A stretch of DNA of 57,156 nucleotides. Source: Candidatus Moranbacteria bacterium CG10_big_fil_rev_8_21_14_0_10_35_21 (GTDB lineage Bacteria > Patescibacteriota > Minisyncoccia > Moranbacterales > UBA2206). The stretch spans positions 1-57,156 of the forward strand of contig PFCG01000022.1 of NCBI GenBank assembly GCA_002773095.1, given 5' to 3'. The first letter of the stretch is position 1, and each line of letters begins with the position of its first letter. Of the stretch, positions 8,324 through 55,620 are shown piece by piece. The notes under the pieces were generated by a model. That model saw nothing but the letters and a program-made list of their open reading frames with translations, was not told where the DNA came from and did no database searches. A program made the translations under genes and the position numbers.

Positions 8324-11300
8324 CTACCTCCTTACCCACCCAAATATATCTTGGAAATTATTGATTATCATTTGCACTACATTTTCTTTTCTTCTCGGAG
8401 TTAACAAAGCATACTCGGTAGAAGTGCCTTCGTTACCGGATTTATCAATAGATTTAGCTTTGAAATAATAAACAGTGCCAGGTTTGAAAATAGTCACTAC
8501 CGCAATATGGCTCGGAGCAAAGTCTTCACTGATTTTAACTTCTTTTTCTTGTCCGGATTTACCTTCTTTGTAGATTAAAGCTGTCGTAGCCGGTTCATCA
8601 GTGGTCCAAGAAATAATAGTTTGTACTCTATCGCCTTGAGCTAAAGCCGAGTCAGTTCTAATCTGATCTATCTTAGGAGCATTTTCATCTTTTCCGGTAG
8701 TAAAGTTGGGACCATCTTGTTCAGTTTCATTCCCCTCTTCATCTCGGGCTTTAATCTTAGTAGAGAAAGTGGTGCCAGCTATTAGGTTTTTCAATTCTAC
8801 TTCATGAGTAGAAGTTAATGTTGGGACTCCTTGAAAACCAGAACCTTTACCTTCAGATAAATCAGTGTAGGAAATGAGAGCGTCAGTCGGCACGTTGGTA
8901 GTAAATTTAACTACCACTGAGTTTTCAGTCACATCCGTAATCTCAGTTCCCGAAATAGCTGGAGGTGATTTGGGCTCGAAAGTATAATCTCCGGAAGAAT
9001 ACAAATTATTAGTTGCATCCTTACCTTTGACTCGGAAATGATAAATTTGAGAAGAAATTAAACTGGTTAAAGTCACTTCGTGAACTTTAGTGAGAGTGGT
9101 GGATTCTTTAGTTTCTCCATAAGAAGTTGTTAATCCGTATTCCACAGTGGAAGTGGTATCTTTAGAAGTACTCCAGGTAATGACAGCTTGATTCAGTGAA
9201 GTAGAAACTACTTTAATGGAAGATAAAGTGGACGGTTCGCTGGTGGTGAAGTTGCCTTGAGCAGATTCGGCGATGTTGCCGGCGGCGTCCGTTGAAATAA
9301 TTGTGTAATAATATTTGGAAGCCGGGATTAAACCATTAATGATTACTGAATGATCAGTTACATAATTAGCTGAATCTGAATTAACTTCATAATTTCCAGC
9401 GATATTATCGTAAGTTCCATCTACTAACCCATAGGCTACTAAACTATTAGCCTCTTCGTCGGTTGTCCATGTTGCTGTGACTGATTCTCCGGTAATTGTC
9501 CCAATATTAATTCCACTGATAGATGGAGCGGTTGCATCAGCTGTATCTCCCCATCCGCTACTAGTTAAAAGTTCAGCTGAAGTAATAAATGAATATTCCG
9601 AAGACATAACCGTATTATCCAAATTATCCACACAAGTAATGCGATAATAATAAGTAGTGGAAAATATCAACCCAGTAACGTGGATGGAATGATTAGAATT
9701 ATATAAAGTTTCCGCAATTGGAACTTCGGTATAAGATCCAGAAGCAGTACCATATTCAATGGTACACTTGGCGTTTTGATCCGTATTAAAAGTAACCACG
9801 GCCTTAGTATCAGTAATCACTGAAGGTGGATCGGCAATATTCGTAATGGCACTCAACGCATCATGTTGTTCTCCTGGAACTCTCAATGTAGTAAAATTAT
9901 ATTCTACAGAAATAGTTGAGTTAGTATTGATATCAACGGAAGTAACGGTGTAATAATATTTAGTGTTGGCGGTGAGACCAGTGAGAATAACATAATGACT
10001 TTTGTCATAAGTGGCCACTGTTCCTGTGCTACCCAAAACTCCAGAAACAGTTCCGTAGGATACTTTGCTGTTAGCATTTTCATCGGTGGTCCAATTAATA
10101 GCCGCGGAAGTGTTGTTAATAATAGCGACATTAGGATTGGAAATAACTGGAGCCACCACATCCGAAGTCGTTACAAAGGAATAAAAGTTTCCAGCATTAT
10201 TATCTGTAGCCACATTAGACGAAGCATCCGTTGATTGGACATAGAAATAATAGGTAGTTCCACTCACCAATGGACTGCCTTCAAAACTGTTAACTATTTG
10301 AGTATGCACATATGGATAACTGCCTCCCACTAAACCTCCCGATACTGCCGGTATTGTTTCAGCACCAACCAATGCTCCACTAGACAAAGTATCAGAATAA
10401 ATTACTTGAGTATCGGAATCTACCGTGGTTAGCCAACTGATAGTTACTTGATTATTACTAACTTGAGGAGCGGTTACATTGGAAATAGCCGGACCATCCA
10501 GAGTAGTAAACGTATAATTGGCAATTGGAGAAGATCCTGGACTATCTTTGTCATTAGTTGCTTCATTACCGCTCGCATCCTGTGATTTTACTTGAATATT
10601 ATAGATCGTATTGGGTAGTATTCCAGTGACAATAACGGAGTGACTAGTTACCATAGAAGCATTTCCGGTTGTGGGTAAATATGTCGCATCGGTAGAATAA
10701 CCCACACTAGAACTGGACAATTCATTGGTCGTCCACGTTACCGTGGCCGAGGTGGTACCGATACCAGATATCGCTACACTCGAAATAGTTGGCGCGGTAG
10801 AATCACTAGACCCAGCTCCATCGGGAATATCATCCACAGTATCAGAATAAGCTGAAAGATTGCCTGCGGAGTCTTGAACATTTATTTTGTAATAATAATG
10901 AGTAGCAGCCGTAAGCCCACTATCAATAACATAATTAACTGTTCGATCGGTTGAGGTTTGCGCCTTCAACCAAATGGCATCACCAGTAGAATGGGAAGCC
11001 GCCACAGTATTATTTACTCCTCTGGTTATAGTTCCTCCCAGATCATTAGTTGACTTTGAAGTATAAGTTATTTGTTCATCGCCGATAATAATTGTTCCGG
11101 AAGTTGGCAAAAGTGAACCATTTGTGACTGTGATGGCTGTTGTGTCAGAGTTAGTTAGTTCCTCATTAAGAGTTAGCGATGATCCGGCAGAGCGCCAGAG
11201 GTTATAGCTAGTAAATCCAGCTCCGACTTCTGAACCAGAAATAGTATTCCAAGCAATAAATTCACGATAAATACTATTACCAGAATCGGAAGTATCATAA

Positions 11301-14300
11301 TACACCGGATTAGCTGGCTTAGCTGGAGTAATAGTCGCTGAAGAATCAGCAGTGTTTCCATAAGCATCTTTAATTCGTAAATAAACTGTCGCCGGATCAG
11401 AAGTCATTGAACTATAAGTATATGGAGAACTAAAAGATACGAAAGTAGAAAAACTAAGAGTATTGGAAACCGACATGGTGTAACTAGAATCATCAGATGG
11501 AGTAGCTAAGGTTAATAAATTAGTTGTATGATCAATAGCTGTTATAGAAACTCCGGTTGGATTAGCTGTGTCTAAAGCAAAACTGGAAGAAGTTCCATAA
11601 CCCAAATTATTAGCTCCTTCAGCATCATTGGCTTTTATCCTCACTTTCAAAGCTCCGTTATGTTGTGCGTCATAATCAGTTTTAGGAGTCCAAGTTATAG
11701 ATCTCAAAGTTCCAGGAATATAGGCATTAGTAATCGCAATCCCCGCTCCGACATCCCCAGAAACTGTCACCGCGTCGGCCCAAGTGGGGCTACCTCCACA
11801 ATCAGCTGTACAATATTGCAAAGTAACCGCCGCCACATCTGAAGTCGTATCGGAATCTCGCATATCATAAGTGACAGTCACCAAACCATCCGATCCTTGA
11901 GAAGCGGAAACGGTCTGCACTTCCGGCGCAGCATTCACCACATAAATAGTTGTGACATCAGCAATCGTTGGGGCATTAGTTCCATTGGAAGTTAAAGTTA
12001 TTTTATATTGAAACCAATTATCTCCACTCTGATCTTTCATGCCAGCCGGCATAGCATCGCTAGTACAAGTAACTGTAGTTGAAACTTTAGAACAATTAGA
12101 AGTATCCTTAGTAAAATCACTCCAACCTCCCCAAGCAGCACCATCGGAACCAGTCCTTAAGGATATAGTGGCACTAGTTCCAGCTGGAAGAGTTGAGTCC
12201 TCATTCCAACTCAATCCTCCCATAATATTAGCAGCGTCTGTGGTGTTATAGGGAGATGAAGTTAAGACTTGTGTGGTCGGATAATAAGAAGAGTTAATTG
12301 TCACATCATCCAATGAAGGAGTGACACTAGTATCATCCGTTGAAAGCGTAGCCCTATATTGAGCATAGCGATCTCCATCGGTCGTACAACTTCCAGTAGA
12401 AAGGTCAGCTCCATTAGTAATATCTGAACAAACTGAATCCCATGCCTTGGAAACAGTTTCTCCAGAACAAGCCGCATCATCACAAGTTCGTGCTTGAATA
12501 GTAATTGTTTTTCCTAATGTATGTGTCCAAGAAATTAAATCCCAAGTATATGTATTTTTTCCGATATCCATAATATCAGAAGTATAAGTTCCGGGGGTAG
12601 AAAATACTGGGTTATAAAGATACACATCTTTATTGGTCTCGTCATATACATAGGCTATTCTGGGATAATTATCTTTTCCAACCCTTAATCGCATACCACT
12701 TCCAGTCCATGGGATATCCAGTTTAACTGTCGTCGGCCCTGAATAACTTGAACAAGTTGCATTATCGCAACTAACTATTTTCAAATCTGGAGCACCACTA
12801 ACATAATAGGAATACGCAATTACAGGAAATCCATTTGGTCCGATATCAATATCCACATCACCACGCCATTCTTGCGTTGTAAAAGCTACCGTAGAATTAC
12901 CACTAGAACAGGCTCCATTTCCGCACCTCAAAAAAGTAGCCTTGTCGTCTGTAGTATTTCTAAAAACAACATCCGCAATTCCGCCAGAATCAACTTGCAA
13001 AGCTATGGGTTGTTTTCCACCATTTGCAATATCATAGTCTGAATAACCAATAATATTTGAGCTGTTGCCCGCCGAACAAGCAGCGTCTCCACATTGGATA
13101 AAATTAGCAGTAAAATCTGTAGCAGCGCCCGACATATAAGCTATTCTAGGTACGTCGTCTGTTCCTAAATCTAAATCTGAATCAACTTTTCCATAACCAA
13201 CCCCATCACTAGCCACTGGATTTGTTACGAAGGAAGAACAATTAGTTGTCGTGCATTGAGCAAGACTTAATACTGCGCTAACTGAATAAATCATTACCGG
13301 ATTAGAACTAGAATCTACAGTCATATCTATAGCACTACCCCCACTATTCAAAATTGTTACGGGAGAGGAGGGATTAATAGAACTACAAGCGGCATTAGCA
13401 CACTGTGCAAATTTTAATTTGTTATCACTGCTATCTCTATAAAATATTTGCGCAAAATCGTTACTGTTAAGAACAAAAACGCCACTACCAAAGTTGAATC
13501 CAGAACTTGCCAAATTAGTAGTAACTTTTGAAGAACAAGATCCATTTAAACATTGCACAAAATATTTTACAGTGTTATCAGTATATAAAATGCGCGAATA
13601 ACCATCAGATCCAATTTGGGCATCATATACATCGGTACCGGTAGCATCCACTGCACTACTTACGGAACTAGAAGAACTTAATTGGATAGAAGCACTGTCT
13701 CCAGTGTTATCTACATGGGTAGAAGAATAACTAGCACTCGCTGAATTAAAACTAGTATTGTCATCCGTGCTACTGTCAGTTTGCACAATAGAACCAGTCG
13801 AAATTCCCAGTGTGACACTATTATATGGATCCGATCCTCCAGTTAGAGATACTCCGGAATCCTTGGACACATAATCAGTAAATCCAGTTTGATCGCTTCC
13901 ATGTGTCGCACCGGCTCCCGCTAGAGTTCCATCCCATTGGGTTTGCACAAAAGTAAATGTCGCTCCCGAAGAATATTGTGAATTTTGAATATAAGTAGAG
14001 GCCAGAGTAACCACAATGACTGTTAAATATACAAATCTTCTCGCCCAAGTGTTTCTAAATATTTTCCTAATTTTACCAAAAACATTTTGCCAATTAAATA
14101 TATTTTTAATTTGAAAGTTAGTTTTAGCTTCTCTTTTTCTGTGTCTTGATAAAAAGTTTATTTTGTCTATTCTTCTGTTAGGTAAAAACTGTAATTTATT
14201 TATTTTAGCTTTTTTATTTATTTTTACCTTTTGGATAAGATAAATAACCATACCCGATATTATTCGTAAAACTATTTTTATTATTCTCATTAATCCCACA

Positions 14301-14452
14301 AAAATAGTTTTAAACAAACCAACAATCTGCTTAACCGAAATATTCACTCCTCGTTTTTTTCTTCCAGAAGCAAAGGAAACTGTCCTCCGAGATATTCCAT
14401 CTAGGTTTCTATGAGTGACTATTAAGTTTTTCTTTTTTATTGAGAAAAACAT
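8324..14452 (-). CDS. giant membrane-anchored surface protein (about 2040 aa): basic N-tail, one TM, Cys-repeat propeller-like region, beta-sandwich modules, eight FN3-like modules
   Basis: ORF 8324..14470 opens with GTG. The first ATG is at 14452, 5 nt after the stop of the upstream HTH gene. The first 145 aa are Lys/Arg-rich, followed by the hydrophobic span FVYLTVIVVTLASTYI and a Ser/Thr/Asn-rich body. Two repeat systems are listed separately below. Confidence 0.85.
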   Translation of the reverse strand: MFFSIKKKNLIVTHRNLDGISRRTVSFASGRKKRGVNISVKQIVGLFKTIFVGLMRIIKIVLRIISGMVIYLIQKVKINKKAKINKLQFLPNRRIDKINFLSRHRKREAKTNFQIKNIFNWQNVFGKIRKIFRNTWARRFVYLTVIVVTLASTYIQNSQYSSGATFTFVQTQWDGTLAGAGATHGSDQTGFTDYVSKDSGVSLTGGSDPYNSVTLGISTGSIVQTDSSTDDNTSFNSASASYSSTHVDNTGDSASIQLSSSSSVSSAVDATGTDVYDAQIGSDGYSRILYTDNTVKYFVQCLNGSCSSKVTTNLASSGFNFGSGVFVLNSNDFAQIFYRDSSDNKLKFAQCANAACSSINPSSPVTILNSGGSAIDMTVDSSSNPVMIYSVSAVLSLAQCTTTNCSSFVTNPVASDGVGYGKVDSDLDLGTDDVPRIAYMSGAATDFTANFIQCGDAACSAGNSSNIIGYSDYDIANGGKQPIALQVDSGGIADVVFRNTTDDKATFLRCGNGACSSGNSTVAFTTQEWRGDVDIDIGPNGFPVIAYSYYVSGAPDLKIVSCDNATCSSYSGPTTVKLDIPWTGSGMRLRVGKDNYPRIAYVYDETNKDVYLYNPVFSTPGTYTSDIMDIGKNTYTWDLISWTHTLGKTITIQARTCDDAACSGETVSKAWDSVCSDITNGADLSTGSCTTDGDRYAQYRATLSTDDTSVTPSLDDVTINSSYYPTTQVLTSSPYNTTDAANIMGGLSWNEDSTLPAGTSATISLRTGSDGAAWGGWSDFTKDTSNCSKVSTTVTCTSDAMPAGMKDQSGDNWFQYKITLTSNGTNAPTIADVTTIYVVNAAPEVQTVSASQGSDGLVTVTYDMRDSDTTSDVAAVTLQYCTADCGGSPTWADAVTVSGDVGAGIAITNAYIPGTLRSITWTPKTDYDAQHNGALKVRIKANDAEGANNLGYGTSSSFALDTANPTGVSITAIDHTTNLLTLATPSDDSSYTMSVSNTLSFSTFVSFSSPYTYSSMTSDPATVYLRIKDAYGNTADSSATITPAKPANPVYYDTSDSGNSIYREFIAWNTISGSEVGAGFTSYNLWRSAGSSLTLNEELTNSDTTAITVTNGSLLPTSGTIIIGDEQITYTSKSTNDLGGTITRGVNNTVAASHSTGDAIWLKAQTSTDRTVNYVIDSGLTAATHYYYKINVQDSAGNLSAYSDTVDDIPDGAGSSDSTAPTISSVAISGIGTTSATVTWTTNELSSSSVGYSTDATYLPTTGNASMVTSHSVIVTGILPNTIYNIQVKSQDASGNEATNDKDSPGSSPIANYTFTTLDGPAISNVTAPQVSNNQVTISWLTTVDSDTQVIYSDTLSSGALVGAETIPAVSGGLVGGSYPYVHTQIVNSFEGSPLVSGTTYYFYVQSTDASSNVATDNNAGNFYSFVTTSDVVAPVISNPNVAIINNTSAAINWTTDENANSKVSYGTVSGVLGSTGTVATYDKSHYVILTGLTANTKYYYTVTSVDINTNSTISVEYNFTTLRVPGEQHDALSAITNIADPPSVITDTKAVVTFNTDQNAKCTIEYGTASGSYTEVPIAETLYNSNHSIHVTGLIFSTTYYYRITCVDNLDNTVMSSEYSFITSAELLTSSGWGDTADATAPSISGINIGTITGESVTATWTTDEEANSLVAYGLVDGTYDNIAGNYEVNSDSANYVTDHSVIINGLIPASKYYYTIISTDAAGNIAESAQGNFTTSEPSTLSSIKVVSTSLNQAVITWSTSKDTTSTVEYGLTTSYGETKESTTLTKVHEVTLTSLISSQIYHFRVKGKDATNNLYSSGDYTFEPKSPPAISGTEITDVTENSVVVKFTTNVPTDALISYTDLSEGKGSGFQGVPTLTSTHEVELKNLIAGTTFSTKIKARDEEGNETEQDGPNFTTGKDENAPKIDQIRTDSALAQGDRVQTIISWTTDEPATTALIYKEGKSGQEKEVKISEDFAPSHIAVVTIFKPGTVYYFKAKSIDKSGNEGTSTEYALLTPRRKENVVQMIINNFQDIFGWVRR
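8408..10798 (-). other. eight tandem FN3 / purple-acid-phosphatase-N-like modules (coordinates approximate)
   Basis: Recurrent ..VTWTT/..ISWTT.. start and YY..V.S.D..GN end, e.g. IYNIQVKSQDASGN, YYFYVQSTDASSN, YYYTVTSVDINTN, YYYTIISTDAAGN and VYYFKAKSIDKSGN. Confidence 0.65.
12611..13648 (-). other. six ~50-aa repeats each carrying C-x4-C (coordinates approximate)
   Basis: Motifs FVQCLNGSCSS, FAQCANAACSS, LAQCTTTNCSS, FIQCGDAACSAG, FLRCGNGACSS and IVSCDNATCSS at aa 307, 357, 406, 460, 516 and 568. Each follows a hydrophobic strand (e.g. PRIAY, PVIAY). The periodicity suggests a 6-bladed propeller. Confidence 0.5.
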
Positions 14453-14457
14453 ATACT

Positions 14458-14667
14458 TTAATTTTTGCACCGGAAAGCCGGCAGATTACTTCTCATCTCC
14501 TTCATAAATTTCTTGATTATTTCAATATCTTTTTCGTTATAAAAACGCCATCCTCTGGAGTCTTTTTGAGGATGTGGAATAAGCCCAGCGCGTTCCCAGC
14601 GTAGGATGGTATTTCTGTCACGGTCTATAAGCTTCTCTACATCTTTAACTCTTATGTATTCCATCAT
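14458..14667 (-). CDS. stand-alone MerR/excisionase-type HTH protein (69 aa), copy 1
   Basis: MMEYIRVKDVEKLIDRDRNTILRWERAGLIPHPQKDSRGWRFYNEKDIEIIKKF. Nearly identical to copy 2 over the HTH. ACGGGG-AAAAAA-ATG gives an SD-like GGGG 6 nt upstream. Confidence 0.7.
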   Translation of the reverse strand: MMEYIRVKDVEKLIDRDRNTILRWERAGLIPHPQKDSRGWRFYNEKDIEIIKKFMKEMRSNLPAFRCKN

Positions 14668-14995
14668 TTTTTTCCCCGTTAGAAATTCCAGGATTAATTA
14701 GATAATTTTTTAGCCTATTTTTTATGTAGCGCTTCCCCATTCCAGATTTAAGATACTTTTCTCTTGCTTTTGCGTCATCTATGTTTAAACCTGCTTCGCT
14801 ATAAATTATTTGAAATGGCCCTCTATTTTTGGTAGAAAGACTTTTTCCCTGATTATGTTGTGAAAGTCTTTTTTTTAAATTTTGCGTATAGCCCGTATAC
14901 CAACATTTATCCTTCTCACTTCTTAAAACATAAACATACCACCACTGGTGAATTTCTAACGGGGTTTCGACGTCTTTGATACGGATATATGTCAT
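14645..14995 (-). CDS. GIY-YIG nuclease (COG2827/UPF0213 type) fused behind 11 MerR-like codons
   Basis: WYVYVLRSEKDKCWYTGYTQNLKKRLSQHNQGKSLSTKNRGPFQIIYSE...AKAREKYLKSGMGKRYIKNRL matches the small GIY-YIG family. The N-terminal MTYIRIKDVE copies the MerR-like gene start. Confidence 0.8.
   Translation of the reverse strand: MTYIRIKDVETPLEIHQWWYVYVLRSEKDKCWYTGYTQNLKKRLSQHNQGKSLSTKNRGPFQIIYSEAGLNIDDAKAREKYLKSGMGKRYIKNRLKNYLINPGISNGEKNDGIHKS
14674..14964 (-). mobile_element. GIY-YIG cassette bounded by a perfect 15-nt inverted repeat
   Basis: CCCCGTTAGAAATTC at 14674..14688 and GAATTTCTAACGGGG at 14950..14964 are exact reverse complements. They enclose only the GIY-YIG domain coding sequence. 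Confidence 0.6.
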
Positions 14996-15105
14996 CTACT
15001 TTTACTTTTTGTATTTATTTTATTTTCAATATTTTTTTCGTGTTATATGCTATATGTTTCATGTTTTATTAATAGCTTTATTATATCCTATTTTAAATAT
15101 ATTTG

Positions 15106-15129
15106 ATATAGTGAATATATTCACTATAT
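15106..15129 (-). promoter_or_regulatory. 24-bp perfect palindrome in a candidate promoter spacer (possible MerR-type operator)
   Basis: ATATAGTGAATATATTCACTATAT. On the minus strand it reads TTGTTA, an 18-nt spacer and TATATC, upstream of the GIY-YIG / HTH / giant-protein gene string. Confidence 0.4.
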
Positions 15130-15130
15130 A

Positions 15131-15154
15131 ACAAAAAATAAGCCATTAAGGCTT
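15131..15154 (-). terminator. rho-independent terminator after ddl
   Basis: The minus strand reads AAGCC-TTAAT-GGCTT followed by ATTTTTTG. Confidence 0.55.
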
Positions 15155-15261
15155 AAATAAGGCAAAATATGGACTATTTTAGATTTTCTTACAAAAGTTA
15201 TCCACACCCCTAAAATAACCTTTTTTACCAAAATTTATCACGGGGCGTAGTAGGTATAATC

Positions 15262-18789: not shown

Positions 18790-19623
18790 TTAATCGAAAT
18801 AAACATCCTCCTTTTTAGTTTTTTTGCCTACAAAAACTATGTTTTTTCCGGTTATCCAACACTTCTCCATTTGAAACCCCGCTTCTACAAACGTTTTCTC
18901 CAGCTCTTTTTTGGTAAAAGCGTGATGATACCTCATAAATAATTGCCCTTTATTATTTTTGAAGCTAACATAACAATCATTCCAATCTAAATCAGATTTT
19001 CCTCTAACTTTACTCAACCAATTTTTCAGAATATATTTGCAATATTTTCTTTTCCACAAATTCCAAACCGTAATAACGATTTTACCGTCCGGCTGCAAAA
19101 CTCGAAACAATTCTTTGACAGTGTTTTCTCTAATATCTTCACTAGGCAAATGATGAAAAACTGCGATAGAATAAATAGTATTGAAAAATCCTTCAGAAAG
19201 TGGCTCGCCCCGCACTAAACGTTGACTAATTTTCTCACTGGAGTATTCTTTTTCTATAGCTTCTACCTTACTATTTATATTTTTCTTTCTATTTGTAGCT
19301 TTAGTGCGGGGTAGAGTACTTGAACTGGATAGTTTTTGAAAGGCAATATCTTTTCCAAGATATTTCCCTTTGGCGATTTCAATCAATTTTCCAGAAATAT
19401 CCACCCCAAAATATTTTATAGTTTTGTTCGAAAATATTTCCAAAAGCCGTCCATTGCCACAACCAAAATCCAAAACTTTGTCTTCATTTTTGGCATAGTC
19501 CTGAATAAATTCCAACTCTGACCAGAAATTTTTTCGAGTTTCAGAAAACTTATCCGCGATCAAATCATATCCCGTTTCCGTTTCTAATAATATTTTCTCC
19601 GCTAATTCTTTTTTCATATGCAT
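18790..19623 (-). CDS. class I SAM-dependent methyltransferase (carries an in-frame palindromic insert)
   Basis: Motif I VLDFGCGNGRL and post-I FGVDIS. The start is either 19623 or the ATG at 19617. Confidence 0.75.
   Translation of the reverse strand: MHMKKELAEKILLETETGYDLIADKFSETRKNFWSELEFIQDYAKNEDKVLDFGCGNGRLLEIFSNKTIKYFGVDISGKLIEIAKGKYLGKDIAFQKLSSSSTLPRTKATNRKKNINSKVEAIEKEYSSEKISQRLVRGEPLSEGFFNTIYSIAVFHHLPSEDIRENTVKELFRVLQPDGKIVITVWNLWKRKYCKYILKNWLSKVRGKSDLDWNDCYVSFKNNKGQLFMRYHHAFTKKELEKTFVEAGFQMEKCWITGKNIVFVGKKTKKEDVYFD
19208..19311. repeat. ~104-nt element with perfect 12-nt terminal inverted repeat, in frame in the methyltransferase
   Basis: CCCCGCACTAAA at 19208..19219 and TTTAGTGCGGGG at 19300..19311. 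It encodes LPRTKATNRKKNINSKVEAIEKEYSSEKISQRLVRGE between conserved methyltransferase blocks. Confidence 0.6.
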
Positions 19624-21327
19624 AAATCCTACGACAAATTCATAAGATTAGCAATTAAAAGAAACCCGCAAAGCGCGGAGGATTTTTTAGCACTGAAAAA
19701 GGAATTATCGGGAAAATTCAAATTGCCAATGGATACCAACGCTAATATCCGAGAATACTATGAAAAAATGATCAAAAATCGCCAAATCAAGCGTCATTTA
19801 AAATTTGAGGAAATTTTGCAAAGCCGAAAAATACGCACCCAATCCGGTGTAGCTGTGGTGGCTGTGCTCACTAAACCCTCAGATTGCCCAGGAAAGTGTC
19901 TTTATTGCCCGACTGAAAAAGGAATGCCCAAAAGTTATCTTTCTAATGAGCCAGCCGTAATGCGCGCCATTGATGCCAAATTTAATCCCTATCTGCAAGT
20001 CCAAAATCGGCTTTATGCTTTAGAAATTAACGGACACAAGACCGACAAAATAGAATTGATTGTGATGGGAGGAACTTTTTCGTATTTTCCTAAAAAATAT
20101 CAGCAGTGGTTTATCACTGAATGTTTTCAAGCAGCCAATGAATATGATAGAAGAATTCACCATGTTAAATCTTCCGCTAAAGCGGAAATGCTCGAAGAGC
20201 AATTTAACAGGGCAAGCAAGCGCAATGAAACGGCCAAACACAGAATTATCGGACTAACACTAGAGACCAGACCTGATTATATTGATGAAAAAGAAATTTT
20301 AAATTTCCGCCATTTGGGTTGCACGCGAGTGGAATTAGGCGTGCAAAGTATTTTTAATTCGGTCCTCAAAAAAAATAATCGCGGTCATGATATCCAAAAA
20401 ACCATTGATGCCACTCGCCTTTTGAAAGACGCGGGATTTAAAATCAATTATCATATTATGCCAGGCCTTCTTGGATCCAGCTTGAAAAAGGATTATGAAA
20501 TGTTTCAAAAATTATTTTCTGATTCTGCCTTCCAACCGGATATGTTGAAAATTTATCCGACTGTGGTTTTGAAAAATTCCAAACTGTATAAAGTCTGGAA
20601 GCAAAAAAAATATATACCGCTCACTGACAAAAATTTTCAAAAGCTAGTAGTTAAAATAAAAAACGATTTGATTCCGCCATACGTCAGAATTTCTCGCTTG
20701 GTGCGTGATGTACCATCTACCTCCATCATTGCTGGACCAACAATTTCCAACTTACGCCAAATCATCGCCAAAGAATCTCGATGCCAATGCATCCGTTGCC
20801 GAGAAGTCCGCGCGAGTTACCCGCCCACATCCCGCTCTGGACGGGAAGTGTGTCGGGCAGGTGAAATAAAACTTAATCGTATCAATTACAAAGCTTCGGG
20901 CGGGAAAGAAATATTTTTACAATATGTCTCTCCTGACAAGAAAAAATTATTTGCTTTACTGCGACTAAGAATTCCGTCTTTCGCGTGTCATCCTGAGCGA
21001 GTGAAACGAGTCGAAGGATCTAATCCAATTAGATTCCTCGATTGCACTCGGAATGACAAATTATATGAATTATTACCAGCACTAAAAAACGCTGCTCTTA
21101 TCCGTGAAGTACATACCTATGGAAAAGTGACCGCGATTAATAAAAAAGATAAAACTTCTCCTCAACATATTGGTCTTGGGAAAAAATTGATGCTAGAAGC
21201 GGAAAAAATCGCCAGGAAAGAATTTAAATTAAATAAAATTGTAGTAATATCAGGTATCGGCGTGCGAGGTTATTACAAAAAATTAGGTTATCGACAAAAA
21301 GACACATATATGATAAAAAGTATTTAG
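19618..21327 (+). CDS. elp3: Elp3-family radical SAM + GNAT acetyltransferase (tRNA U34 modification type)
   Basis: RTQSGVAVVAVLTKPSDCPGKCLYCP radical-SAM cluster region. TIM-barrel blocks (IELIVMGGTF, RIIGLTLETRPD, GCTRVELGVQS). C-terminal GNAT (IREVHTYG...GLGKKLMLEAEKIA). Confidence 0.85.
   Translation: MHKSYDKFIRLAIKRNPQSAEDFLALKKELSGKFKLPMDTNANIREYYEKMIKNRQIKRHLKFEEILQSRKIRTQSGVAVVAVLTKPSDCPGKCLYCPTEKGMPKSYLSNEPAVMRAIDAKFNPYLQVQNRLYALEINGHKTDKIELIVMGGTFSYFPKKYQQWFITECFQAANEYDRRIHHVKSSAKAEMLEEQFNRASKRNETAKHRIIGLTLETRPDYIDEKEILNFRHLGCTRVELGVQSIFNSVLKKNNRGHDIQKTIDATRLLKDAGFKINYHIMPGLLGSSLKKDYEMFQKLFSDSAFQPDMLKIYPTVVLKNSKLYKVWKQKKYIPLTDKNFQKLVVKIKNDLIPPYVRISRLVRDVPSTSIIAGPTISNLRQIIAKESRCQCIRCREVRASYPPTSRSGREVCRAGEIKLNRINYKASGGKEIFLQYVSPDKKKLFALLRLRIPSFACHPERVKRVEGSNPIRFLDCTRNDKLYELLPALKNAALIREVHTYGKVTAINKKDKTSPQHIGLGKKLMLEAEKIARKEFKLNKIVVISGIGVRGYYKKLGYRQKDTYMIKSI
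20987..21057. repeat. 71-nt hairpin element (family A arms, no ORF) in frame in elp3
   Basis: GTCATCCTGAGCGAGTGAAACGAGTCGAAGGATCTAAT-CCA-ATTAGATTCCTCGATTGCACTCGGAATGAC. Encodes CHPERVKRVEGSNPIRFLDCTRND. Confidence 0.7.
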
Positions 21328-25941: not shown

Positions 25942-28413
25942 TTAAATTACAATACTTATTAACTTTCCTTTGACAAAAATAATTTTCTTAATTTTCTTTC
26001 CGGAAATTTGAGATTTTATTTTCTCACTTTCCACTGCCAATTTTTTGGCATCTTCTTCAGTGATATCTGCGCTTACTCTTAATTTATCTCGCACCTTGCC
26101 ATTTATTTGAATAACTAACTCGATTTCTTCATCCTGAATCAGTTTTTCATCATATTTAGGCCAGGCTTCTAAAAATATAGATTTAGTGTGTCCTAGCTTT
26201 TTCCAAATTTCTTCAGCGATGTGCGGAGCAAAAGGAGATAATAGTATTAAATATTTTTCATATTGTATTTTGGATATTGATTCTTGTTTATCTAATTCGT
26301 TAGCGAAAATCATCATTTGGCTAATGGCCGTATTAAAGCGTAAGCTCTCAATATCATTTGTAATTTTTTTAATCGTTTTGTGAAATAAGCTTTCTAACTT
26401 TTTATTGGTGATATTTTTGTCCGTTATTTTTCCGGCGTTTTTATAAACTTTTTCCAAAAACCTCACGATACCCACAATCCCTTTTGTATTCCACGGTTTC
26501 ATATCCTCCAATGGCCCCATAAACATTTCAAACATTCTTAAGGAATCTGCACCAAATTTTTCCACCACTTCATCTGGATTCACCACATTGCCCTTGGATT
26601 TGGCCATCTTGTTTCCGTCTTCAGCTAAAATTATTCCCTGGTGACGTAGTTTCAAAAAAGGTTCATCAAATTTAATATGACCAAGCTTGTGTAAAACTTT
26701 GGTAAAAAATCGCGCATAGAGCAGATGCAAAACCGTATGTTCCGCTCCTCCAACATACAAATCTACCGGCAGCCATTTCTTAATTTGCTCTTTGCCGGCA
26801 AAAGCCTTTTTATTTCTTGAATCGGAATAGCGGAAATAATACCAAGAGGAGCAAACAAATGTGTCCATCGTGTCAGATTCTCTTTTTGCCTCACCTCCGC
26901 ACTTCGGACATTTCACATTATGAAAACTTTTGGATTTTTTAAGTGGTGACTCTCCAGTTGGATTGAAATCAACATCCGTCGGCAACATCACCGGCAAATC
27001 TTCTTCCGGAACAGGAATTTCTCCTTGCCTCGCCGGATCAAGGTGGGCGCATTTTTCGCAATAAATAATCGGAATGGGCGCGCCCCAATATCTTTGACGA
27101 CTTACCAACCAGTCACGCAGTTTGTAATTTATTTTTTGGCTACCCAATTTATTTTCAGTCAGCCATTTCGTCATTTCTGCACGTGCTTTTTCAGAAATCA
27201 TCTTTGTAAATTTTCCAGAATCAAATAGCACACCGTCAGCAGTAAATATTTTATCTACCTTTTTTTCTCCTTCTATTACTTCCTTTATTGGCAACTTATA
27301 TTTCTGCGCAAATTCCCAGTCGCGTTCATCATGCGCTGGAACAGCCATTACTGCGCCAGTGCCGTATTGCGCCAAGACATAATCCGCGACAAACAAAGAC
27401 ACTTCTTCATTGGTAAAGGGATTAATAACTTTTATGCCTTTAATTTCTACGCCAGTCTTCTCTTTAGCTTCCATCCGCATCAAGTCAGATTTTTTCTTGG
27501 ATTTCTCAAGATATTTTTCCACTTCTTTCAGATTTAAAATTTGCTCCGCTAACTGTTGGACTATTTTGTGTTCGGGAGCAACAACGCAATACGTACACCC
27601 AAAGATAGTATCTACACGCGTAGTGAATACCTCTATAAAGTTTTTATCATTATTTAATTGGGATTTGTTTAGAAATTTGGAATTAGAAATTAGAAATTTT
27701 ATCGTTGTCCCTTCGCTACGCCCAATCCAATTTCTTTGCGTTTGTTTGGTAGATTCCGGCCAATCCAATTTTTCCAATCCAGAAAGTAATCCTTGAGTTT
27801 TTCCCTTGTCCTCAATAAAATCCGTGATTTTAAAAAACCATTGCTCTAAATCTTTTTGAATCACTTTATTGCCACATCTTTCACACACTCCATTTTCGGA
27901 TTGTTCGTTCGCCAAAACCGTTTGGCACGATTCGCACCAATTCACTTTAGCTTTGGCCTTATAAGCTAATTTATTTTTATATAACTGCAGAAAAAACCAT
28001 TGCGTCCATTTGTAGTATTCTGGATCTGAAGAATTCACTTCTCGCGACCAATCATAGGAAAATCCCAATTTGCCCATTTGAGCTTTGAAAGTAGCAATGG
28101 CTTTTTTGGTTGTTTCAGTCGGATGAATTTTGGTTTTAATAGCATAATTTTCCGCCGGCAAACCGAAAGCGTCCCAACCTTGCGGATGCAAAACATTTTT
28201 TCCTTGCAAGCGATAATAACGCGACATAATATCCGTGGCCGTGTATGATTCCACATGCCCGACATGGAGACCCTCTCCTGAAGGATAAGGAAACATATCC
28301 AAAATATATTTCTTTTCTTTTTTTGAATCATCGTTCACCGCAAAAAGTTCCGGATGTTCGATCCAATACTTTTGCCATTTGGCTTCAATTTCTTTCGGAT
28401 TATATTTTTCCAT
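25942..28413 (-). CDS. leuS: leucyl-tRNA synthetase
   Basis: HVGH (PYPSGEGLHVGHV) and KMAKS motifs and the CP1 editing domain. The ORF opens with GTG at 28419 and the ATG is at 28413. Confidence 0.95.
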   Translation of the reverse strand: MEKYNPKEIEAKWQKYWIEHPELFAVNDDSKKEKKYILDMFPYPSGEGLHVGHVESYTATDIMSRYYRLQGKNVLHPQGWDAFGLPAENYAIKTKIHPTETTKKAIATFKAQMGKLGFSYDWSREVNSSDPEYYKWTQWFFLQLYKNKLAYKAKAKVNWCESCQTVLANEQSENGVCERCGNKVIQKDLEQWFFKITDFIEDKGKTQGLLSGLEKLDWPESTKQTQRNWIGRSEGTTIKFLISNSKFLNKSQLNNDKNFIEVFTTRVDTIFGCTYCVVAPEHKIVQQLAEQILNLKEVEKYLEKSKKKSDLMRMEAKEKTGVEIKGIKVINPFTNEEVSLFVADYVLAQYGTGAVMAVPAHDERDWEFAQKYKLPIKEVIEGEKKVDKIFTADGVLFDSGKFTKMISEKARAEMTKWLTENKLGSQKINYKLRDWLVSRQRYWGAPIPIIYCEKCAHLDPARQGEIPVPEEDLPVMLPTDVDFNPTGESPLKKSKSFHNVKCPKCGGEAKRESDTMDTFVCSSWYYFRYSDSRNKKAFAGKEQIKKWLPVDLYVGGAEHTVLHLLYARFFTKVLHKLGHIKFDEPFLKLRHQGIILAEDGNKMAKSKGNVVNPDEVVEKFGADSLRMFEMFMGPLEDMKPWNTKGIVGIVRFLEKVYKNAGKITDKNITNKKLESLFHKTIKKITNDIESLRFNTAISQMMIFANELDKQESISKIQYEKYLILLSPFAPHIAEEIWKKLGHTKSIFLEAWPKYDEKLIQDEEIELVIQINGKVRDKLRVSADITEEDAKKLAVESEKIKSQISGKKIKKIIFVKGKLISIVI
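27656..27700. repeat. AT-rich (T)CTAAAT-type repeat segment in frame in leuS
   Basis: AATTGGGATTTGTTTAGAAATTTGGAATTAGAAATTAGAAATTTT encodes ISNSKFLNKSQLNN just before the conserved FTTRVDT block. It shares words with the 28964..29090 spacer. Confidence 0.45.
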
Positions 28414-31799: not shown

Positions 31800-32180
31800 T
31801 CAAATATTCAATTGCTTATTTTCTGTTTTTTTGATAATTGCCAACAAAATATTCTTTAACTCCATTCCTTCTTGTTTTAATTCTTGTATTCTGGATTTAA
31901 ATTCCGGATTATCTTCTTCAATCAACTCCAGCCAATGCAGTGTTTCTTTTGCTTCTTTTCTGGAAATTTTCATCCGATGTATAAAATCTTTTTTTCCTAA
32001 CGCATCATTAGCTTCTCTATAATTTGCTCCTACTGAACCGGCAGAACCTGCCGTTTGCCCCGTTAATCTATTGTTTATCGAATCTTTCGGCAATGATTTG
32101 CATAATCTTATTACTCTTTTTGCAAATTCAGCAGTTCTTTCTTCTAAATCAAATTTATTTTTGTTTTGAGTATTGGTCAT
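31800..32180 (-). CDS. four-helix-bundle protein (23S rRNA intervening-sequence protein family)
   Basis: FDLEERTAEFAKRVIRLCKSLPK...GQTAGSAGSVGANYREA...KDFIHRMKISRKEAKETLHWLELI matches that family. Confidence 0.8.
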   Translation of the reverse strand: MTNTQNKNKFDLEERTAEFAKRVIRLCKSLPKDSINNRLTGQTAGSAGSVGANYREANDALGKKDFIHRMKISRKEAKETLHWLELIEEDNPEFKSRIQELKQEGMELKNILLAIIKKTENKQLNI

Positions 32181-33891: not shown

Positions 33892-34329
33892 TTATTTAGC
33901 TAATTGAATTTTTAAATTTTTTAGTTGTGCCGATACACTTCCATCCATCACTTCGTCCCCCACTCGGATAATTATTCCACCTTGGATTTTTTCATTGATC
34001 ACATTATTTATTTCTACTTTTTCGATTTTACCTGCCCGCAATGCTTCGTATAGCGATGCAGGCGGGTATTTTTCTTTGATAAATTCCTCTAACTTTATAA
34101 CTTGAGAACCTGATAACTTTCGACTTGTAGTGGCCTCAACTTCGACAATTCCATTTCCTTTATTGTATATCTCTGAAAATTTTTCCACAATTTTTGGAAT
34201 CATTTTTGCTTTCCGAGCATTGACCAAAAATTTCGCGAAATTCAAAACAATGCCGTCAATCTCTTCGTGAGACTTCTCGTTTGTAAGCTCATATAATGTT
34301 TTCGCATATTGCGTAGCGGTTATTTTCAT
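33892..34329 (-). CDS. atpH: ATP synthase F1 delta subunit (OSCP)
   Basis: YAKTLYELT start, C-terminal GGIIIRVGDEVMDGSV and operon position. Confidence 0.85.
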   Translation of the reverse strand: MKITATQYAKTLYELTNEKSHEEIDGIVLNFAKFLVNARKAKMIPKIVEKFSEIYNKGNGIVEVEATTSRKLSGSQVIKLEEFIKEKYPPASLYEALRAGKIEKVEINNVINEKIQGGIIIRVGDEVMDGSVSAQLKNLKIQLAK

Positions 34330-34333
34330 ACGT

Positions 34334-34685
34334 GTCGTCCCGAGCTTGTCGAGGGATCTAATTTATAATGTTTTGTATAAATCCTTCCACTCTGGGTTAA
34401 TTTTATTAATTAAATTTACTTTTTTCTCTCTTCTCCACTTTTTCAATTGCTTTTCTCTTTCTAACGCACTTCTTACGTTTTCAGTTTGTTCAAAATACAC
34501 TAACTTATCAACATTGTATTTTTTTGTAAAACCATCGACTACTTTATGCTTATGCTGATAAATTCTTCTTTTCAGATCATTTGTAACTCCGATATATAAA
34601 ACCTTTGAGATACTTGATAAAATGTAAACGCAATATTGTCTCATTTTTATTTAATATTAGATCCTTCGACTTCGCTCAGGATGAC
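34334..34685 (-). mobile_element. GIY-YIG cassette bounded by ~30-nt imperfect inverted repeats (family A arms)
   Basis: Left arm GTCGTCCCGAGCTTGTCGAGGGATCTAAT at 34334..34362. The right arm (34656..34685) reads GTCATCCTGAGCGAAGTCGAAGGATCTAAT as its reverse complement. About 24 of 30 positions match. Confidence 0.65.
34363..34644 (-). CDS. GIY-YIG nuclease (COG2827/UPF0213 type), 93 aa
   Basis: YCVYILSSISKVLYIGVTNDLKRRIYQH...LVYFEQTENVRSALEREKQLKKWRREKK. Confidence 0.85.
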   Translation of the reverse strand: MRQYCVYILSSISKVLYIGVTNDLKRRIYQHKHKVVDGFTKKYNVDKLVYFEQTENVRSALEREKQLKKWRREKKVNLINKINPEWKDLYKTL

Positions 34686-34693
34686 ACATGGTG

Positions 34694-38445: not shown

Positions 38446-38481
38446 TTCTTCCTTATATCCATATAACCTTATAAGGAAGAA
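38446..38481. repeat. 36-bp inverted-repeat arm (left) flanking the TrpR/YerC-like gene
   Basis: TTCTTCCTTATATCCATATAACCTTATAAGGAAGAA. It is itself a 12-bp stem with a 12-nt loop, and is the exact reverse complement of 38933..38968. Confidence 0.85.
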
Positions 38482-52562: not shown

Positions 52563-55500
52563 TTATTTTTTTACCTGAATCTTTAACTTTTCTCCATCAA
52601 CATCAAATTCTTTTTCCAAATCAAAATTTTCCAAAGTTTCTTTTATTTCATTGGCTAAAACTTCCTTGGCAATCAAATCATTAAACTTTTCAAATATCTC
52701 CTTGCCTCCAACATAGCCCACGCTAATATGATCGTCAACAACATAATCCGCTTCTTTTCTCATTGTTTGGATAAATCGAATAATTTCCCTCGCTTGGCCT
52801 TCCAATTTTAATTCGGGAGTGATTTCGATGTCTATCGCAACTGTTTCAGTCTCTGATCCTATTTCAGCTCCTTTAACATTTAATTCTTCAATGATAATAT
52901 TGCTCCATTCTGGTTTATTAATTAATTCATCAAAAACACTTTCATATTTTTTTCCAAGAATAACACGCTTTAAAGGTTGTCGAACCTTAATTTTATTTTT
53001 TGCCCGATCTTGTAATCCCAATGTTATAATTTCGCGAAGGGCACCCATATTTTCATTCAATTTTTCATCAATTAATTTTTCATCCGCTACCGGAAAATCA
53101 ACCAAATGAACCGATTCTTCGCCAGTTAGATTTTTATAAATTTCTTCAGATATGAAAGGTGTAAAAGGCGCCATTAATTTTGAAAGCTCCATCAGTGACA
53201 TATGCAAAGTTTGATAAGCGCTTTCCTTGTCGCCATCGTCCTCTGATTTCCAAAATCTTTTTCGTGATCGTCGAATATACCAATTAGAAAGATTATCTAC
53301 AAATTTTTCTATTATTCCGGCCGCGCCGTAAACATCATAGCTCTCTAATTTTTCGTCAACATTTTTGATTAATATATTCAACTCAGAAATAATCCATTTA
53401 TCCAAAAGATTTTCTGATTTCCATATTCCTTTTGTCTCCCATTGATCAATATTCGCGTAGAGTACAAAAAAAGAATATGAATTCCAAAGCATGCGGAAAA
53501 CCCGATTCATGATTTCATTCATGCCTTTGATATCAAATTTTTTCGTCATCCCTGGCTGATTAATTGTAAAAAGCATCCAGCGCAACATATCTGCGCCATA
53601 TTTATCCATTACTTCCATCGGATCAACTATGTTGCCTTTAGATTTACTCATTTTTTTACCTTTGCTATCTAAAATGAGATTTAAACAAATGACATTTTTA
53701 TAGGCATAGCCAGCTGGAACTTTTCCTGCTTTATTAAGTAATGTTGCGATGGCGTGCAAAGTATAAAACCAACCGCGTGTTTGATCGATGGCTTCAGAAA
53801 TATAATCTGCGGGGAAAAAATTTCCGCTTTCAATTTTTTTTTTGTCTTCTTTTGAAGCTTGGTTGGGATAGCTGAATTGCGCTAATGGCATAGATCCGGA
53901 ATCAAACCAAACATCCAAAACTTCTGGAACTCTTTTCATTTCTTCTCCACAAACACATTTAAATTTCACATCATCAATATATGGTTTATGTAAATCCTCT
54001 AGTTTTTGTCCAGACATTTTTTCCATTTCCGATATAGATTCAATGACTTTCAGTTCTCCGCACTTAGCACATTCCCAAATAGGAAGCGGCGTGCCCCAAT
54101 ATCTTTCTCGAGAAATCGCCCAATCCTTAACTCCGAGAAGCCATTCGCCAAATCTTCCTTCTTTGATATATTCCGGAATCCAATTTATGTTTTCATTATT
54201 TTTTCCCAGATCCGAAGAAAGTTCGCTCATCTGGATGAACCAGGATGGTTTGGCATAATAAATCAAAGGCGTATCGCATCGCCAGCAGAAAGGATATTCA
54301 TGTTCGTATAATTCTTCTTTTAATAATAATCCTCTTTCTTTTAAATCTTCTATAATCAACTCGTCAGCTGCATATTTATTTCTTTCGTTTTTCTTTTTTA
54401 CCGGAAGACCTTCGCCTGGAATATTAAACCCAGAGATTATTTTTCCGGTTTCATCCACGGTTAAAAGTGTTGGCAAATTATTTTCCCTACCAACATTAGC
54501 ATCATCTTCTCCGAAAGCCGGAGCAATATGCACAATGCCCGTTCCTTCTGAAGTGGAAACAAAATCTCCTGAAACTACATAATGCACTTTTTTGTTTTCT
54601 TTGTTCTCACTATTATATAAAGGCTCGTATTCAAGATTTAACAAATTTTTTCCCAAAAACCCACCTGCTATTTTATACTCTCCTTCAACAACACTCAGCC
54701 TATTTTTAGCTAAAATATAACAACTGTCATGCTGAACTTGTTTCAGCATCTCTTGAGATCCCGAAACAAGTTCGGGATGACATTTTATTTTTACATACTC
54801 AATCTCTTTATTTACCGCCAATGCCACATTCCCTGGCAATGTCCACGGCGTGGTCGTCCAAGCCAGAAAATAAGTATTGTCATCAATGCCCTTTTCCGGA
54901 TTTGGCTTAGCTTTAAATTTTACATAAATAGAATTATCTTTAACCATTTGATATCCTTGAGCAACTTCATGTGAAGAAAGAGTTGTCCCACAACGATAGC
55001 AATATGGCACAACTTTATGCCCTTTATAAATTAAGCTTTCTCCTTTTTTGTTTTTCGTTTTGAAAATTTGAGCCACCACCCACCAGACTGATTCAATATA
55101 TTTATTTTTATAGGTAATATATGGATTTTTCATATCCACCCAATACCCCATTCTTTCAGTTAATTTTTCCCATTGATCCTTATATTTCCAAACCGACTCT
55201 TTACATTTTTTATTGAATTCGATAATACTTTCACGTGGATTTCCGGGAACGATATTCTCTATTTCTTGCTTATTCTTAAGACCCATTTCTTTTTCTACCT
55301 GCAATTCCACTGGTAATCCATGCGTATCCCAACCAGCCTTTCTTTCCACTCGATAACCTTTCATGGTTTTGTAGCGAGGAATGATATCCTTAAATGCCCG
55401 TGCCAAAACATGATGCAACCCCGGCTGGCCATTAGCTGTCGGAGGACCCTCATAAAAAACAAAAGATTTATCAGAAGAATTTTTTTCTACTGATTTTTCA

Positions 55501-55586
55501 AATATTTTTTCCTCATCCCAAAATTTCAGAATCCCTTCTTCCATTTGGGGAAATTTCATTTTTGGGTCTATTTGTTTGAATGCCAT
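52563..55586 (-). CDS. ileS: isoleucyl-tRNA synthetase
   Basis: PPTANGQPGLHH (HIGH), KMSKSKGN (KMSKS), the CP1 editing domain and a zinc-knuckle region. The ATG is at 55586. Confidence 0.95.
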   Translation of the reverse strand: MAFKQIDPKMKFPQMEEGILKFWDEEKIFEKSVEKNSSDKSFVFYEGPPTANGQPGLHHVLARAFKDIIPRYKTMKGYRVERKAGWDTHGLPVELQVEKEMGLKNKQEIENIVPGNPRESIIEFNKKCKESVWKYKDQWEKLTERMGYWVDMKNPYITYKNKYIESVWWVVAQIFKTKNKKGESLIYKGHKVVPYCYRCGTTLSSHEVAQGYQMVKDNSIYVKFKAKPNPEKGIDDNTYFLAWTTTPWTLPGNVALAVNKEIEYVKIKCHPELVSGSQEMLKQVQHDSCYILAKNRLSVVEGEYKIAGGFLGKNLLNLEYEPLYNSENKENKKVHYVVSGDFVSTSEGTGIVHIAPAFGEDDANVGRENNLPTLLTVDETGKIISGFNIPGEGLPVKKKNERNKYAADELIIEDLKERGLLLKEELYEHEYPFCWRCDTPLIYYAKPSWFIQMSELSSDLGKNNENINWIPEYIKEGRFGEWLLGVKDWAISRERYWGTPLPIWECAKCGELKVIESISEMEKMSGQKLEDLHKPYIDDVKFKCVCGEEMKRVPEVLDVWFDSGSMPLAQFSYPNQASKEDKKKIESGNFFPADYISEAIDQTRGWFYTLHAIATLLNKAGKVPAGYAYKNVICLNLILDSKGKKMSKSKGNIVDPMEVMDKYGADMLRWMLFTINQPGMTKKFDIKGMNEIMNRVFRMLWNSYSFFVLYANIDQWETKGIWKSENLLDKWIISELNILIKNVDEKLESYDVYGAAGIIEKFVDNLSNWYIRRSRKRFWKSEDDGDKESAYQTLHMSLMELSKLMAPFTPFISEEIYKNLTGEESVHLVDFPVADEKLIDEKLNENMGALREIITLGLQDRAKNKIKVRQPLKRVILGKKYESVFDELINKPEWSNIIIEELNVKGAEIGSETETVAIDIEITPELKLEGQAREIIRFIQTMRKEADYVVDDHISVGYVGGKEIFEKFNDLIAKEVLANEIKETLENFDLEKEFDVDGEKLKIQVKK
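54726..54781. repeat. 56-nt hairpin (family A variant) in frame in ileS
   Basis: GTCATGCTGAACTTGTTTCAGCATCTC-TT-GAGATCCCGAAACAAGTTCGGGATGAC. Encodes HPELVSGSQEMLKQVQHD. Confidence 0.7.
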
Positions 55587-55620
55587 ATAAATCAATTATA
55601 TTACTAAAACGCTTTATAAA

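Follow-up and report, generated by a model that had tools for sequence, protein, structure and literature searches.

The stretch of DNA analysed here (57,156 nucleotides of a Candidatus Moranbacteria contig, PFCG01000022.1, hereafter the window) encodes Elp3, a radical-SAM/KAT enzyme of tRNA U34 modification, and within this gene lies a pair of inverted, TGTC-tagged repeat units. The open reading frame (ORF) at 19618..21327 corresponds to a full-length Elp3, with 539 bits against NCBIfam TIGR01211, an E value of 1.8e-117 against PDB 6iad and Pfam matches to Radical_SAM and Radical_SAM_C. The features of the locus are as follows:

19618..21327, forward strand: the Elp3 host gene, radical-SAM/KAT tRNA U34 modification enzyme, 569 amino acids (TIGR01211, Pfam, PDB)
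20986..21058, forward strand: tags-outward (HH) heterodimer of two TGTC-tagged repetitive extragenic palindromic (REP)/SRM units, TGTCAT...ATGACA, 73 nt
20987..21024, forward strand: left unit, with GTC tag, ATCCT...AGGAT stem and CTAAT tail (unit detector)
21028..21057, reverse strand: right unit, with GTC tag, ATTCC...GGAAT stem and CTAAT tail (unit detector)

A first-pass annotation of the window had drawn attention to a 71-nt hairpin at 20987-21057 on the forward strand, within the Elp3 ORF, and the segment is found exactly there, reading GTCATCCTGAGCGAGTGAAACGAGTCGAAGGATCTAAT-CCA-ATTAGATTCCTCGATTGCACTCGGAATGAC. It had also been said to be free of stops in the host frame, and positions 20986-21057 (72 nt, TGT CAT ... 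AAT GAC) do read through as CHPERVKRVEGSNPIRFLDCTRND. The net insertion amounts to 72 nt, or 24 codons, corresponding to Elp3 residues 457-480, and its G+C content (46%) exceeds that of the Elp3 gene (38%) and of the window (36%). The description of the hairpin as perfect-armed has to be corrected, since the outer 13-mers quoted for it pair at 10 of 13 positions and the inner 12-mers at 10 of 12. The left arm has 38 nt, 8 more than the right one (30 nt), and the sole perfect part of the arm-to-arm pairing is the central ATCTAAT/ATTAGAT. What stands of the arm-to-arm hairpin is that the element folds better than shuffled sequences, both as RNA (-25.9 kcal/mol, z -2.9, with 2 of 200 shuffles equally good) and as DNA (z -3.3); the relevant structure is instead two short hairpins, one per arm. 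The stem of the right unit is unlike that of the left unit and yet pairs within itself, so that the dimer is a heterodimer.

The insertion and the Elp3 loop that holds it

The first-pass annotation had allowed for the segment being ordinary lineage-specific sequence, with homologous residues in orthologues from distant lineages. This is not what the orthologues present: between the strands LRLR and REVHxYG the window protein has 38 residues, against the 10-13 of distant Elp3 proteins (368 to 381 in Dehalococcoides, 403 to 414 in Methanocaldococcus, 466 to 479 in yeast and 455 to 469 in mouse and human). Closer relatives were drawn from the best 120 homologues, all of them from Patescibacteria and most from Moranbacteria. 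The four nearest (P0001-P0004; 79-82% identity to the window Elp3 by BLASTP, 86-88% in the MAFFT alignment) carry IPENNNQNHFIP at the site, a 19-residue loop without insert, and at the DNA level the alignment with the closest empty allele (L091) contains a gap of 72 nt. Judged from these alignments, the Elp3 segment is a genuine insertion, as had been proposed.

The same loop is filled repeatedly among the orthologues. About 30 of the 120 carry unit-derived peptides there, belonging to at least eight repeat families (CHPELVSGS..MLKQVQHD, CHSGLDPES..DSRFHGND, CHSRESGN..IPGQVGND, CHPELVEGS..AQND, CHSEPVEES..APQDD and others), and the DNA of the genome loci identifies these inserts as true unit pairs. 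Other palindrome families use the loop too, with peptides such as VETHCNASL or GSTxxxVEP, and its length ranges from 7 to 64 residues across the orthologues. Two loci (L006 and L079) hold an intact dimer beside an older right-end remnant, and two others (L035, RGNDKMY; L044, YNDKLY) hold a remnant only. The right junction, AATGAC-AAA-TTR-TAY (ND-K-L-Y/H), is common to nearly all filled alleles, and the left one varies in position by 1-3 codons. On a neighbour-joining tree, rough and weak as it is, alleles with an insert are scattered among those without. The allele of the window is not a peculiarity of one assembly, as an identical insert-bearing Elp3 protein occurs on 20 contigs from several independent assemblies.

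Regarding the protein, the first-pass annotation had placed the insert after the LRLRIP block and ahead of the GNAT domain. That block is a strand of the KAT/GNAT domain itself, so the insert lies inside the domain, in a beta-hairpin loop. An AlphaFold2 model of the window Elp3 (from a 100-sequence alignment; mean pLDDT 86, pTM 0.87) agrees with the expectation that the boundaries fall in a loop, as the insert is predicted as a low-confidence loop between the KAT-domain strands 444-453 and 492-500, with block-mean pLDDT values of 54-66 and values below 50 at residues 456-463 and 472-475. The model has two other low-confidence stretches (181-184 and 405-412), and these coincide with the two further insertion hot spots of the alignment. 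The acetyl-CoA blocking loop was considered as the insertion site and rejected: residues 390-406 of DmcElp3 correspond approximately to 503-519 of the window protein, one hairpin downstream.

As to whether the insert is translated through or removed, the two outcomes contemplated initially, the balance tips toward translation, with the loop tolerating the extension. Across this loop each of the 79 informative Elp3 loci keeps its reading frame without a stop, whatever the family or length of the insert; the two remaining loci are set apart by a homopolymer frameshift (contig-style assembly) and by an N-gap of a scaffold, respectively. Two of the six frames across the Elp3 dimer are open, and the host uses one of those. 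Remnants unable to fold (in L035 and L044, and nested in L006 and L079) are still read in frame. On this reading of the frames, the insert is almost certainly translated as part of Elp3; the peptide would then be present in the mature protein, and it may well be functionally neutral.

Repeat units, dimers and the nuclease cassette

The arms of the Elp3 element had been noted to be those of a GIY-YIG cassette in the atp operon, and this holds: GTCATCCTGAGCG is found in the window solely at 20987 and at 34673-34685 on the reverse strand. The cassette comprises the following:

34333..34686, reverse strand: SRM-ssn-SRM cassette with outward-tagged units, between the atpF stop and the atpH start
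34363..34644, reverse strand: single-domain GIY-YIG nuclease of 93 amino acids, Ssn-family homologue by sequence comparison (PF01541)

Read on the minus strand from 34686 to 34333, it consists of TGTCATCCTGAGCGAAGTCGAAGGATCTAAT, an 11-nt spacer, the GIY-YIG ORF and ATTAGATCCCTCGACAAGCTCGGGACGACA. It begins 8 nt past the atpF stop and ends 4 nt ahead of the atpH ATG, and the units at 34333-34362 and 34645-34686 bracket the ORF on both sides. Its left arm is identical to that of Elp3 at 30 of 30 positions, except for an 8-nt insertion in the Elp3 copy. Since the arms match, the Elp3 element is the same arm pair without the gene. Folded singly, neither cassette arm beats shuffled sequences. The cassette is identical in three contigs of the same population (L081-L083, including NCBI GCA_002790575.1). 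Among the contigs retrieved by an AtpE look-up, all of this population, no empty atpF-atpH junction occurs, and each contig that reaches the junction bears the cassette or its start.

In the nuclease, PF01541 spans residues 3-77 (E 9e-17). A tblastn search of PLSDB, which contains two N. gonorrhoeae chromosomes filed as plasmids, gives one match place per chromosome, a 94-aa ORF with 45 of 89 residues identical (51%, E 2e-30) that lies amid CGTCATTCCCGC..GCGGGAATC repeats (NTS). Its size, single copy and NTS flanks suggest that this ORF is the orthologue of SsnA. Ssn proteins form a family of single-domain GIY-YIG nucleases of about 94 residues (cd10448; Chenal et al. 2025, PMC11893778), and by size, domain content and similarity the window protein is a homologue of this family. 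An NCBIfam search of the protein gave no match, and in a sequence search of the PDB the nearest solved relative had an E value of only 0.06. Further homologues occur in Planktothrix, Sinorhizobium, Novosphingobium and Spirosoma (43-61% identity among those inspected), and the one on Novosphingobium pNL2 (L221) is bracketed by outward-tagged units, like the window cassette. In a related genome, another SRM-ssn-SRM cassette with outward tags (L008, 6160-6522; nuclease 46% identical) sits directly between the stop of Elp3 and the downstream NUDIX gene.

Ssn binds NTS/SRM hairpins as single-stranded DNA only and cuts just upstream of them; SRMs lie on both sides of 42% of the ssn homologues, 2% of the NTS of N. 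meningitidis are intragenic, and the NTS-ssnA-NTS arrangement is described as insertion-sequence-like (PMC11893778). The likeness to this system resides in the small GIY-YIG protein with GTCAT-tagged hairpins on either side, in the 51% identity and in the presence of the NTS core in relatives, as some related loci carry TGTCATTCCCGCGAAAGCGGGAATCCA, which equals that core. The orientation is not uniform: in Neisseria the tags of the repeats nearest ssnA point toward the gene, whereas those of the window point outward, in the manner of an insertion sequence (IS).

The units share one design: the TGTC tag is followed by a stem beginning with AT, its loop and the returning strand, and then by a short C-T/C-N tail. 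The window and 80 related loci, 1.34 Mb in all, contain about 50 of them, many with perfect 8-bp stems and loops of 4-5 nt; the tail fits CYA, and the loop length of 4-5 nt is that of the canonical copies. Requiring GTC[AG]T and a stem of 5 bp or more, a first unit detector lacked specificity, with 102 matches against 45-67 in shuffled sequences; it was tightened through a TGTCAT tag and a C tail and supplemented by an anchor-only test (TGTCAT-N6-loop-N6-ATC). In the latter, all six inner pairs form in 31 of 79 cases, compared with none of 2607 controls without the GTC tag; the TGTC tag thus predicts the hairpin. The loose detector also returned a hairpin at 27170-27198 on the forward strand (CGTCATTTCTG...CAGAAATC, 7-bp stem, 12-nt loop), probably a chance match, since it has neither TGTC tag nor tail.

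These 1.34 Mb contain 15 outward-tagged dimers, 13 of them heterodimers. In the 15 dimers, 228 of 240 stem positions pair within the arm and 92 of 120 match between arms, a comparison partly biased by the units having been detected through their own stems. What is conserved is the short hairpin formed within each arm and not the long one between the arms.

These features correspond to those of the CGTC-tagged REPs, whose tag is often TGTC, whose AT-initial stems of 8-9 bp enclose loops of 4-5 nt and whose tail resembles CCA; they occur mostly as HH dimers (tags outside), frequently heterodimeric, and have been equated with Neisseria dRS3 and Rickettsia RPE-4 and RPE-6 (PMC3733652). Copies within genes, among them those for tRNA synthetases and UvrD, are mainly dimers that code for 20-30 amino acids, and Di Nocera et al. 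(2013) concluded that a dedicated transposase for them was not known (PMC3733652). The repeats studied here are likewise multi-copy, dispersed and arranged as HH dimers, with TGTC before both arms in Elp3, in the isoleucyl-tRNA synthetase (IleRS) dimer described below and in the cassette; they share the (C/T)GTC tag, the AT-initial stem, the outside tags, the heterodimers and the intragenic copies of 20-30 amino acids, and in canonical copies also the 8-9 bp stem, the 4-5 nt loop and the short CCA/CTA tail. They differ in their host, as the five phyla of that survey did not include Patescibacteria, and in the Elp3 and cassette units, whose AT-initial stems have only 5 bp and whose loops of 12-20 nt are followed by a CTAAT tail. 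Intragenic copies also seem to make up a larger share (4 of 16 dimers, sampled regardless of genes).

The dimers are not confined to Elp3. The window holds another:

54725..54782, reverse strand: second HH heterodimer, 58 nt, in frame in IleRS (ORF 52563..55595, reverse strand)

It reads TGTCATGCTGAACTTGTTTCAGCATCTC..GAGATCCCGAAACAAGTTCGGGATGACA and encodes CHPELVSGSQEMLKQVQHD, and its units, with perfect 8-bp stems (ATGCTGAA and ATCCCGAA), a 5-nt loop and a CTC tail, fit the CGTC-REP stem-loop exactly. In the alignment with 8c9d a gap of 16 residues falls exactly at the dimer, between two strands of the editing domain. A metagenome scan with the pattern GGATCTAAT-N0-6-ATTAGATYC returned at least 120 matching stretches, most of them by chance; among the matches listed there are at least 16 distinct true TGTCAT...ATGACA dimers with a CTAAT/ATTAG centre, from unrelated contigs. 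In their flanks, these 16 have nothing in common but a T preceding GTCAT and an A following ATGAC. Four are located well inside long ORFs, namely in Elp3 at the same site (L126), in a UvrD helicase (L163) and, at different positions, in two FemAB-family genes (L172 and L118); the right arm of the L172 dimer differs from that of the Elp3 element by one base. Among the related loci, the editing domain of the leucyl-tRNA synthetase (LeuRS) in L001 contains an in-frame dimer. In RlmN, the beta-turn KALLKLxDGxxIETV carries dimers in L006 (~13602-13672) and L044 (~7273) and a single unit in L091 (gene 14103-15218), and 24 of 27 loci are empty. The residues flanking the dimers in Elp3, IleRS, LeuRS and RlmN resemble a turn between two beta-strands, as would be expected if dimers persist only where a longer loop does no harm. 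The UvrD of L163 (1208-aa ORF, dimer at ~3004-3074) has in addition an insertion of about 400 residues between the N- and C-terminal helicase domains, which looks intein-like.

Explanations for the insertion

The Elp3 hairpin is most probably a REPIN-like insertion of a selfish repeat, translated through a tolerated loop, and not a device of the Elp3 gene. This explanation builds on parts that stand on observation: the identity of the repeat class, the homology of the nuclease, the insertion and its in-frame status, the predicted loop site and the recurrence. The element is composed of two inverted TGTC-tagged REP units, tags outward, the same repeats that serve as SRM targets of Ssn. It would represent a cargo-less, REPIN-like form of the SRM-ssn-SRM unit, comparable to a miniature inverted-repeat transposable element (MITE), a reading suggested by the ssn homologue that the same genome carries between such arms. 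It would have entered the beta-hairpin loop of the KAT domain and, given its net length of 72 nt and a host frame free of stops, would be transcribed and translated as a flexible loop extension of 24 residues.

Several points weigh against this explanation. The 3-6 codons flanking the site differ as well between empty and filled alleles (SFA/KLYELL versus ENNNRDHFI), so that neither a clean empty site nor a target-site duplication defines the insertion event. Given their 5-bp stems and 12-20 nt loops, the Elp3 arms are atypical units. The published SRM pattern, HGTCWYN(0-2)YYVSBRHN(0-5)WNVSBRGN(0-2)RNCYNB, searched as a regular expression, has no match on either strand of the window, and the window arms differ in this respect from known SRMs. 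This is recorded as a failed test and treated as a limit of the pattern, which was built by hand from 29 genomes of four phyla (PMC11893778); the stems here are too rich in A/T for its S and B positions, where by inspection they have A or T. Finally, what Chenal et al. demonstrated for Ssn is cleavage of single-stranded DNA and an effect on transformation, and never transposition (PMC11893778).

The alternative that survives best concerns only the history of the site and is compatible with the translated repeat insertion. It supposes that a single ancient insertion was inherited, that gene conversion from repeats of the same genome later replaced its arms and that many lineages lost the insert or exchanged it by recombination; we give it an appreciable chance, although below an even one. 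The conservation of the right junction across families while the left one shifts speaks in its favour, as do the flanking codons, which travel with the insert, the window resembling L079 there and not its nearest relative L091. The interleaving of filled and empty alleles over the whole neighbour-joining tree argues against it, as far as that weak tree can be trusted. Moreover, the nested remnants beside intact dimers in L006 and L079 represent at least some fresh arrivals, and RlmN displays a similar pattern at a different beta-turn, with most of its loci empty.

Co-option of the inserted peptide, as a functional lineage-specific extension of the KAT domain kept by selection (for instance, for contact with tRNA or a partner), is improbable. 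About one quarter of the Moranbacteria orthologues retain an insert at the site, the right junction (...ND-K-L-Y/H-x-x-L-P) is common to nearly all filled alleles and the allele is present in every assembly of the population that was read, all of which counts for it; but the sequence, length and repeat family of the insert vary widely by lineage, the nearest relatives lack it, its predicted confidence is low, other palindrome families fill the same loop and the same elements are found in unrelated proteins.

Least probable of all is the removal of the hairpin, by RNA processing, ribosomal bypassing or somatic excision of the DNA by a nuclease, to give a mature Elp3 without the 24 residues. Bypassing has its models in T4 gene 60 and in the 'byp' elements of yeast mitochondria, palindromic mobile inserts that ribosomes skip, which counts for removal. 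The stable folds of the element and the hairpin-specific nuclease family encoded 13 kb away also count for it, yet an insert that is removed would be free to shift the frame or carry stops, which none of the informative loci does, remnants without a palindrome remain in frame, the codons flanking the insert (GCG and AAA) offer no matching take-off and landing pair, the sole Rfam match of the window at the gathering threshold is a tRNA, with none at the element, and Ssn acts on single-stranded DNA and not on RNA (PMC11893778).

For the translated repeat insertion, precedents exist. The Rickettsia palindromic elements (RPEs; Ogata et al. 2000/2002) lie in frame in essential genes of a small-genome host and are translated in surface loops; the classic RPE-1 is longer, at ~100-150 bp, its sequence is unrelated and its host belongs to another phylum. 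RPE-containing proteins are expressed in Rickettsia, as cited in PMC3733652. Together with the intragenic CGTC-REP dimers, they provide the precedent for "translated or spliced", which makes the find mostly ordinary. The expectation that either outcome would be informative was therefore too high, because the class and its in-frame dimers had already been published. The added value is modest and lies in the Patescibacteria host, the pairing of full and empty forms and the hot spots. REPINs and their REP-associated tyrosine transposases (RAYTs), described by Bertels & Rainey (2011) and Nunvar (2010), offer a second likeness, in that an inverted REP doublet is the unit that replicates, with the same repeats on both sides of a nuclease gene that occurs in single copy; in that system the tag is GTAG and the enzyme a Y1 (HUH) transposase, in contrast to the (C/T)GTC tag and GIY-YIG nuclease found here.

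Any mobility that the dimers owe to the nuclease is a further step. In a very clean arrangement, the same arms surround a nuclease gene once and stand empty in a gene once, which suggests that the repeats may be mobile, and Ssn may be what mobilises the dimers. A tentative and rather doubtful extension is that an IS-like SRM-ssn-SRM element has its non-autonomous, REPIN-like mobile form in the outward SRM dimers, that Ssn is transposase-like and that new copies enter preferentially beside existing SRM ends. If so, Ssn would be more than a restriction factor for transformation, the hot spots in beta-hairpin turns of essential genes (such as Elp3 and RlmN) would be explained and Patescibacteria proteins would be a mosaic of translated repeat remnants.

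Apart from mechanism, the Ssn/SRM system, characterised only in 2025, is extended to an ultra-small lineage of the candidate phyla radiation (CPR), the Moranbacteria. One loop of Elp3 constitutes a strong insertion hot spot, filled across the relatives by at least eight repeat families, and RlmN has a similar one. Concerning annotation, many length differences and 'low-complexity' stretches of CPR proteins are translated repeats, which can distort alignments, trees and structure predictions.

Other palindromes and neighbouring features

An ungapped inverted-repeat scan missed the other in-frame palindromes. A second, unrelated family, ACC[CT]GCC...GGGCAGGT, which encodes peptides like PPASLYEALRAG, is present in frame in three genes, with RNA minimum free energies of -22, -22 and -42 kcal/mol, respectively:

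20812-20871, forward strand: Elp3 (PPTSRSGREVCRAG)
34021-34074, reverse strand: atpH
31209-31310, reverse strand: atpG

In Elp3 it occurs at the same position in four orthologues (P0050, P0111, P0115 and P0038). Between atpA and atpG, the window also contains an ORF of 126 amino acids (31800-32180, reverse strand), whose counterpart in L081-L083, of the same length and in the same place, matches Pfam 23S_rRNA_IVP. The atp operon thereby holds four foreign insertions, namely the ssn cassette, this ORF and the two in-frame palindromes.

Upstream of Elp3, the empty allele L091 has a Y1 transposase gene (8556-9221; PF01797, IS200/IS605 or RAYT type) at a distance of ~800 nt, where the window has a methyltransferase. 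Elsewhere in the window, a perfect 37-nt inverted repeat, TTCTTCCTTATATCCATATAACCTTATAAGGAAGAAA, at 38446-38482 and 38932-38968 surrounds 449 nt, and the pair could be the ends of an invertible segment or of a small mobile element.

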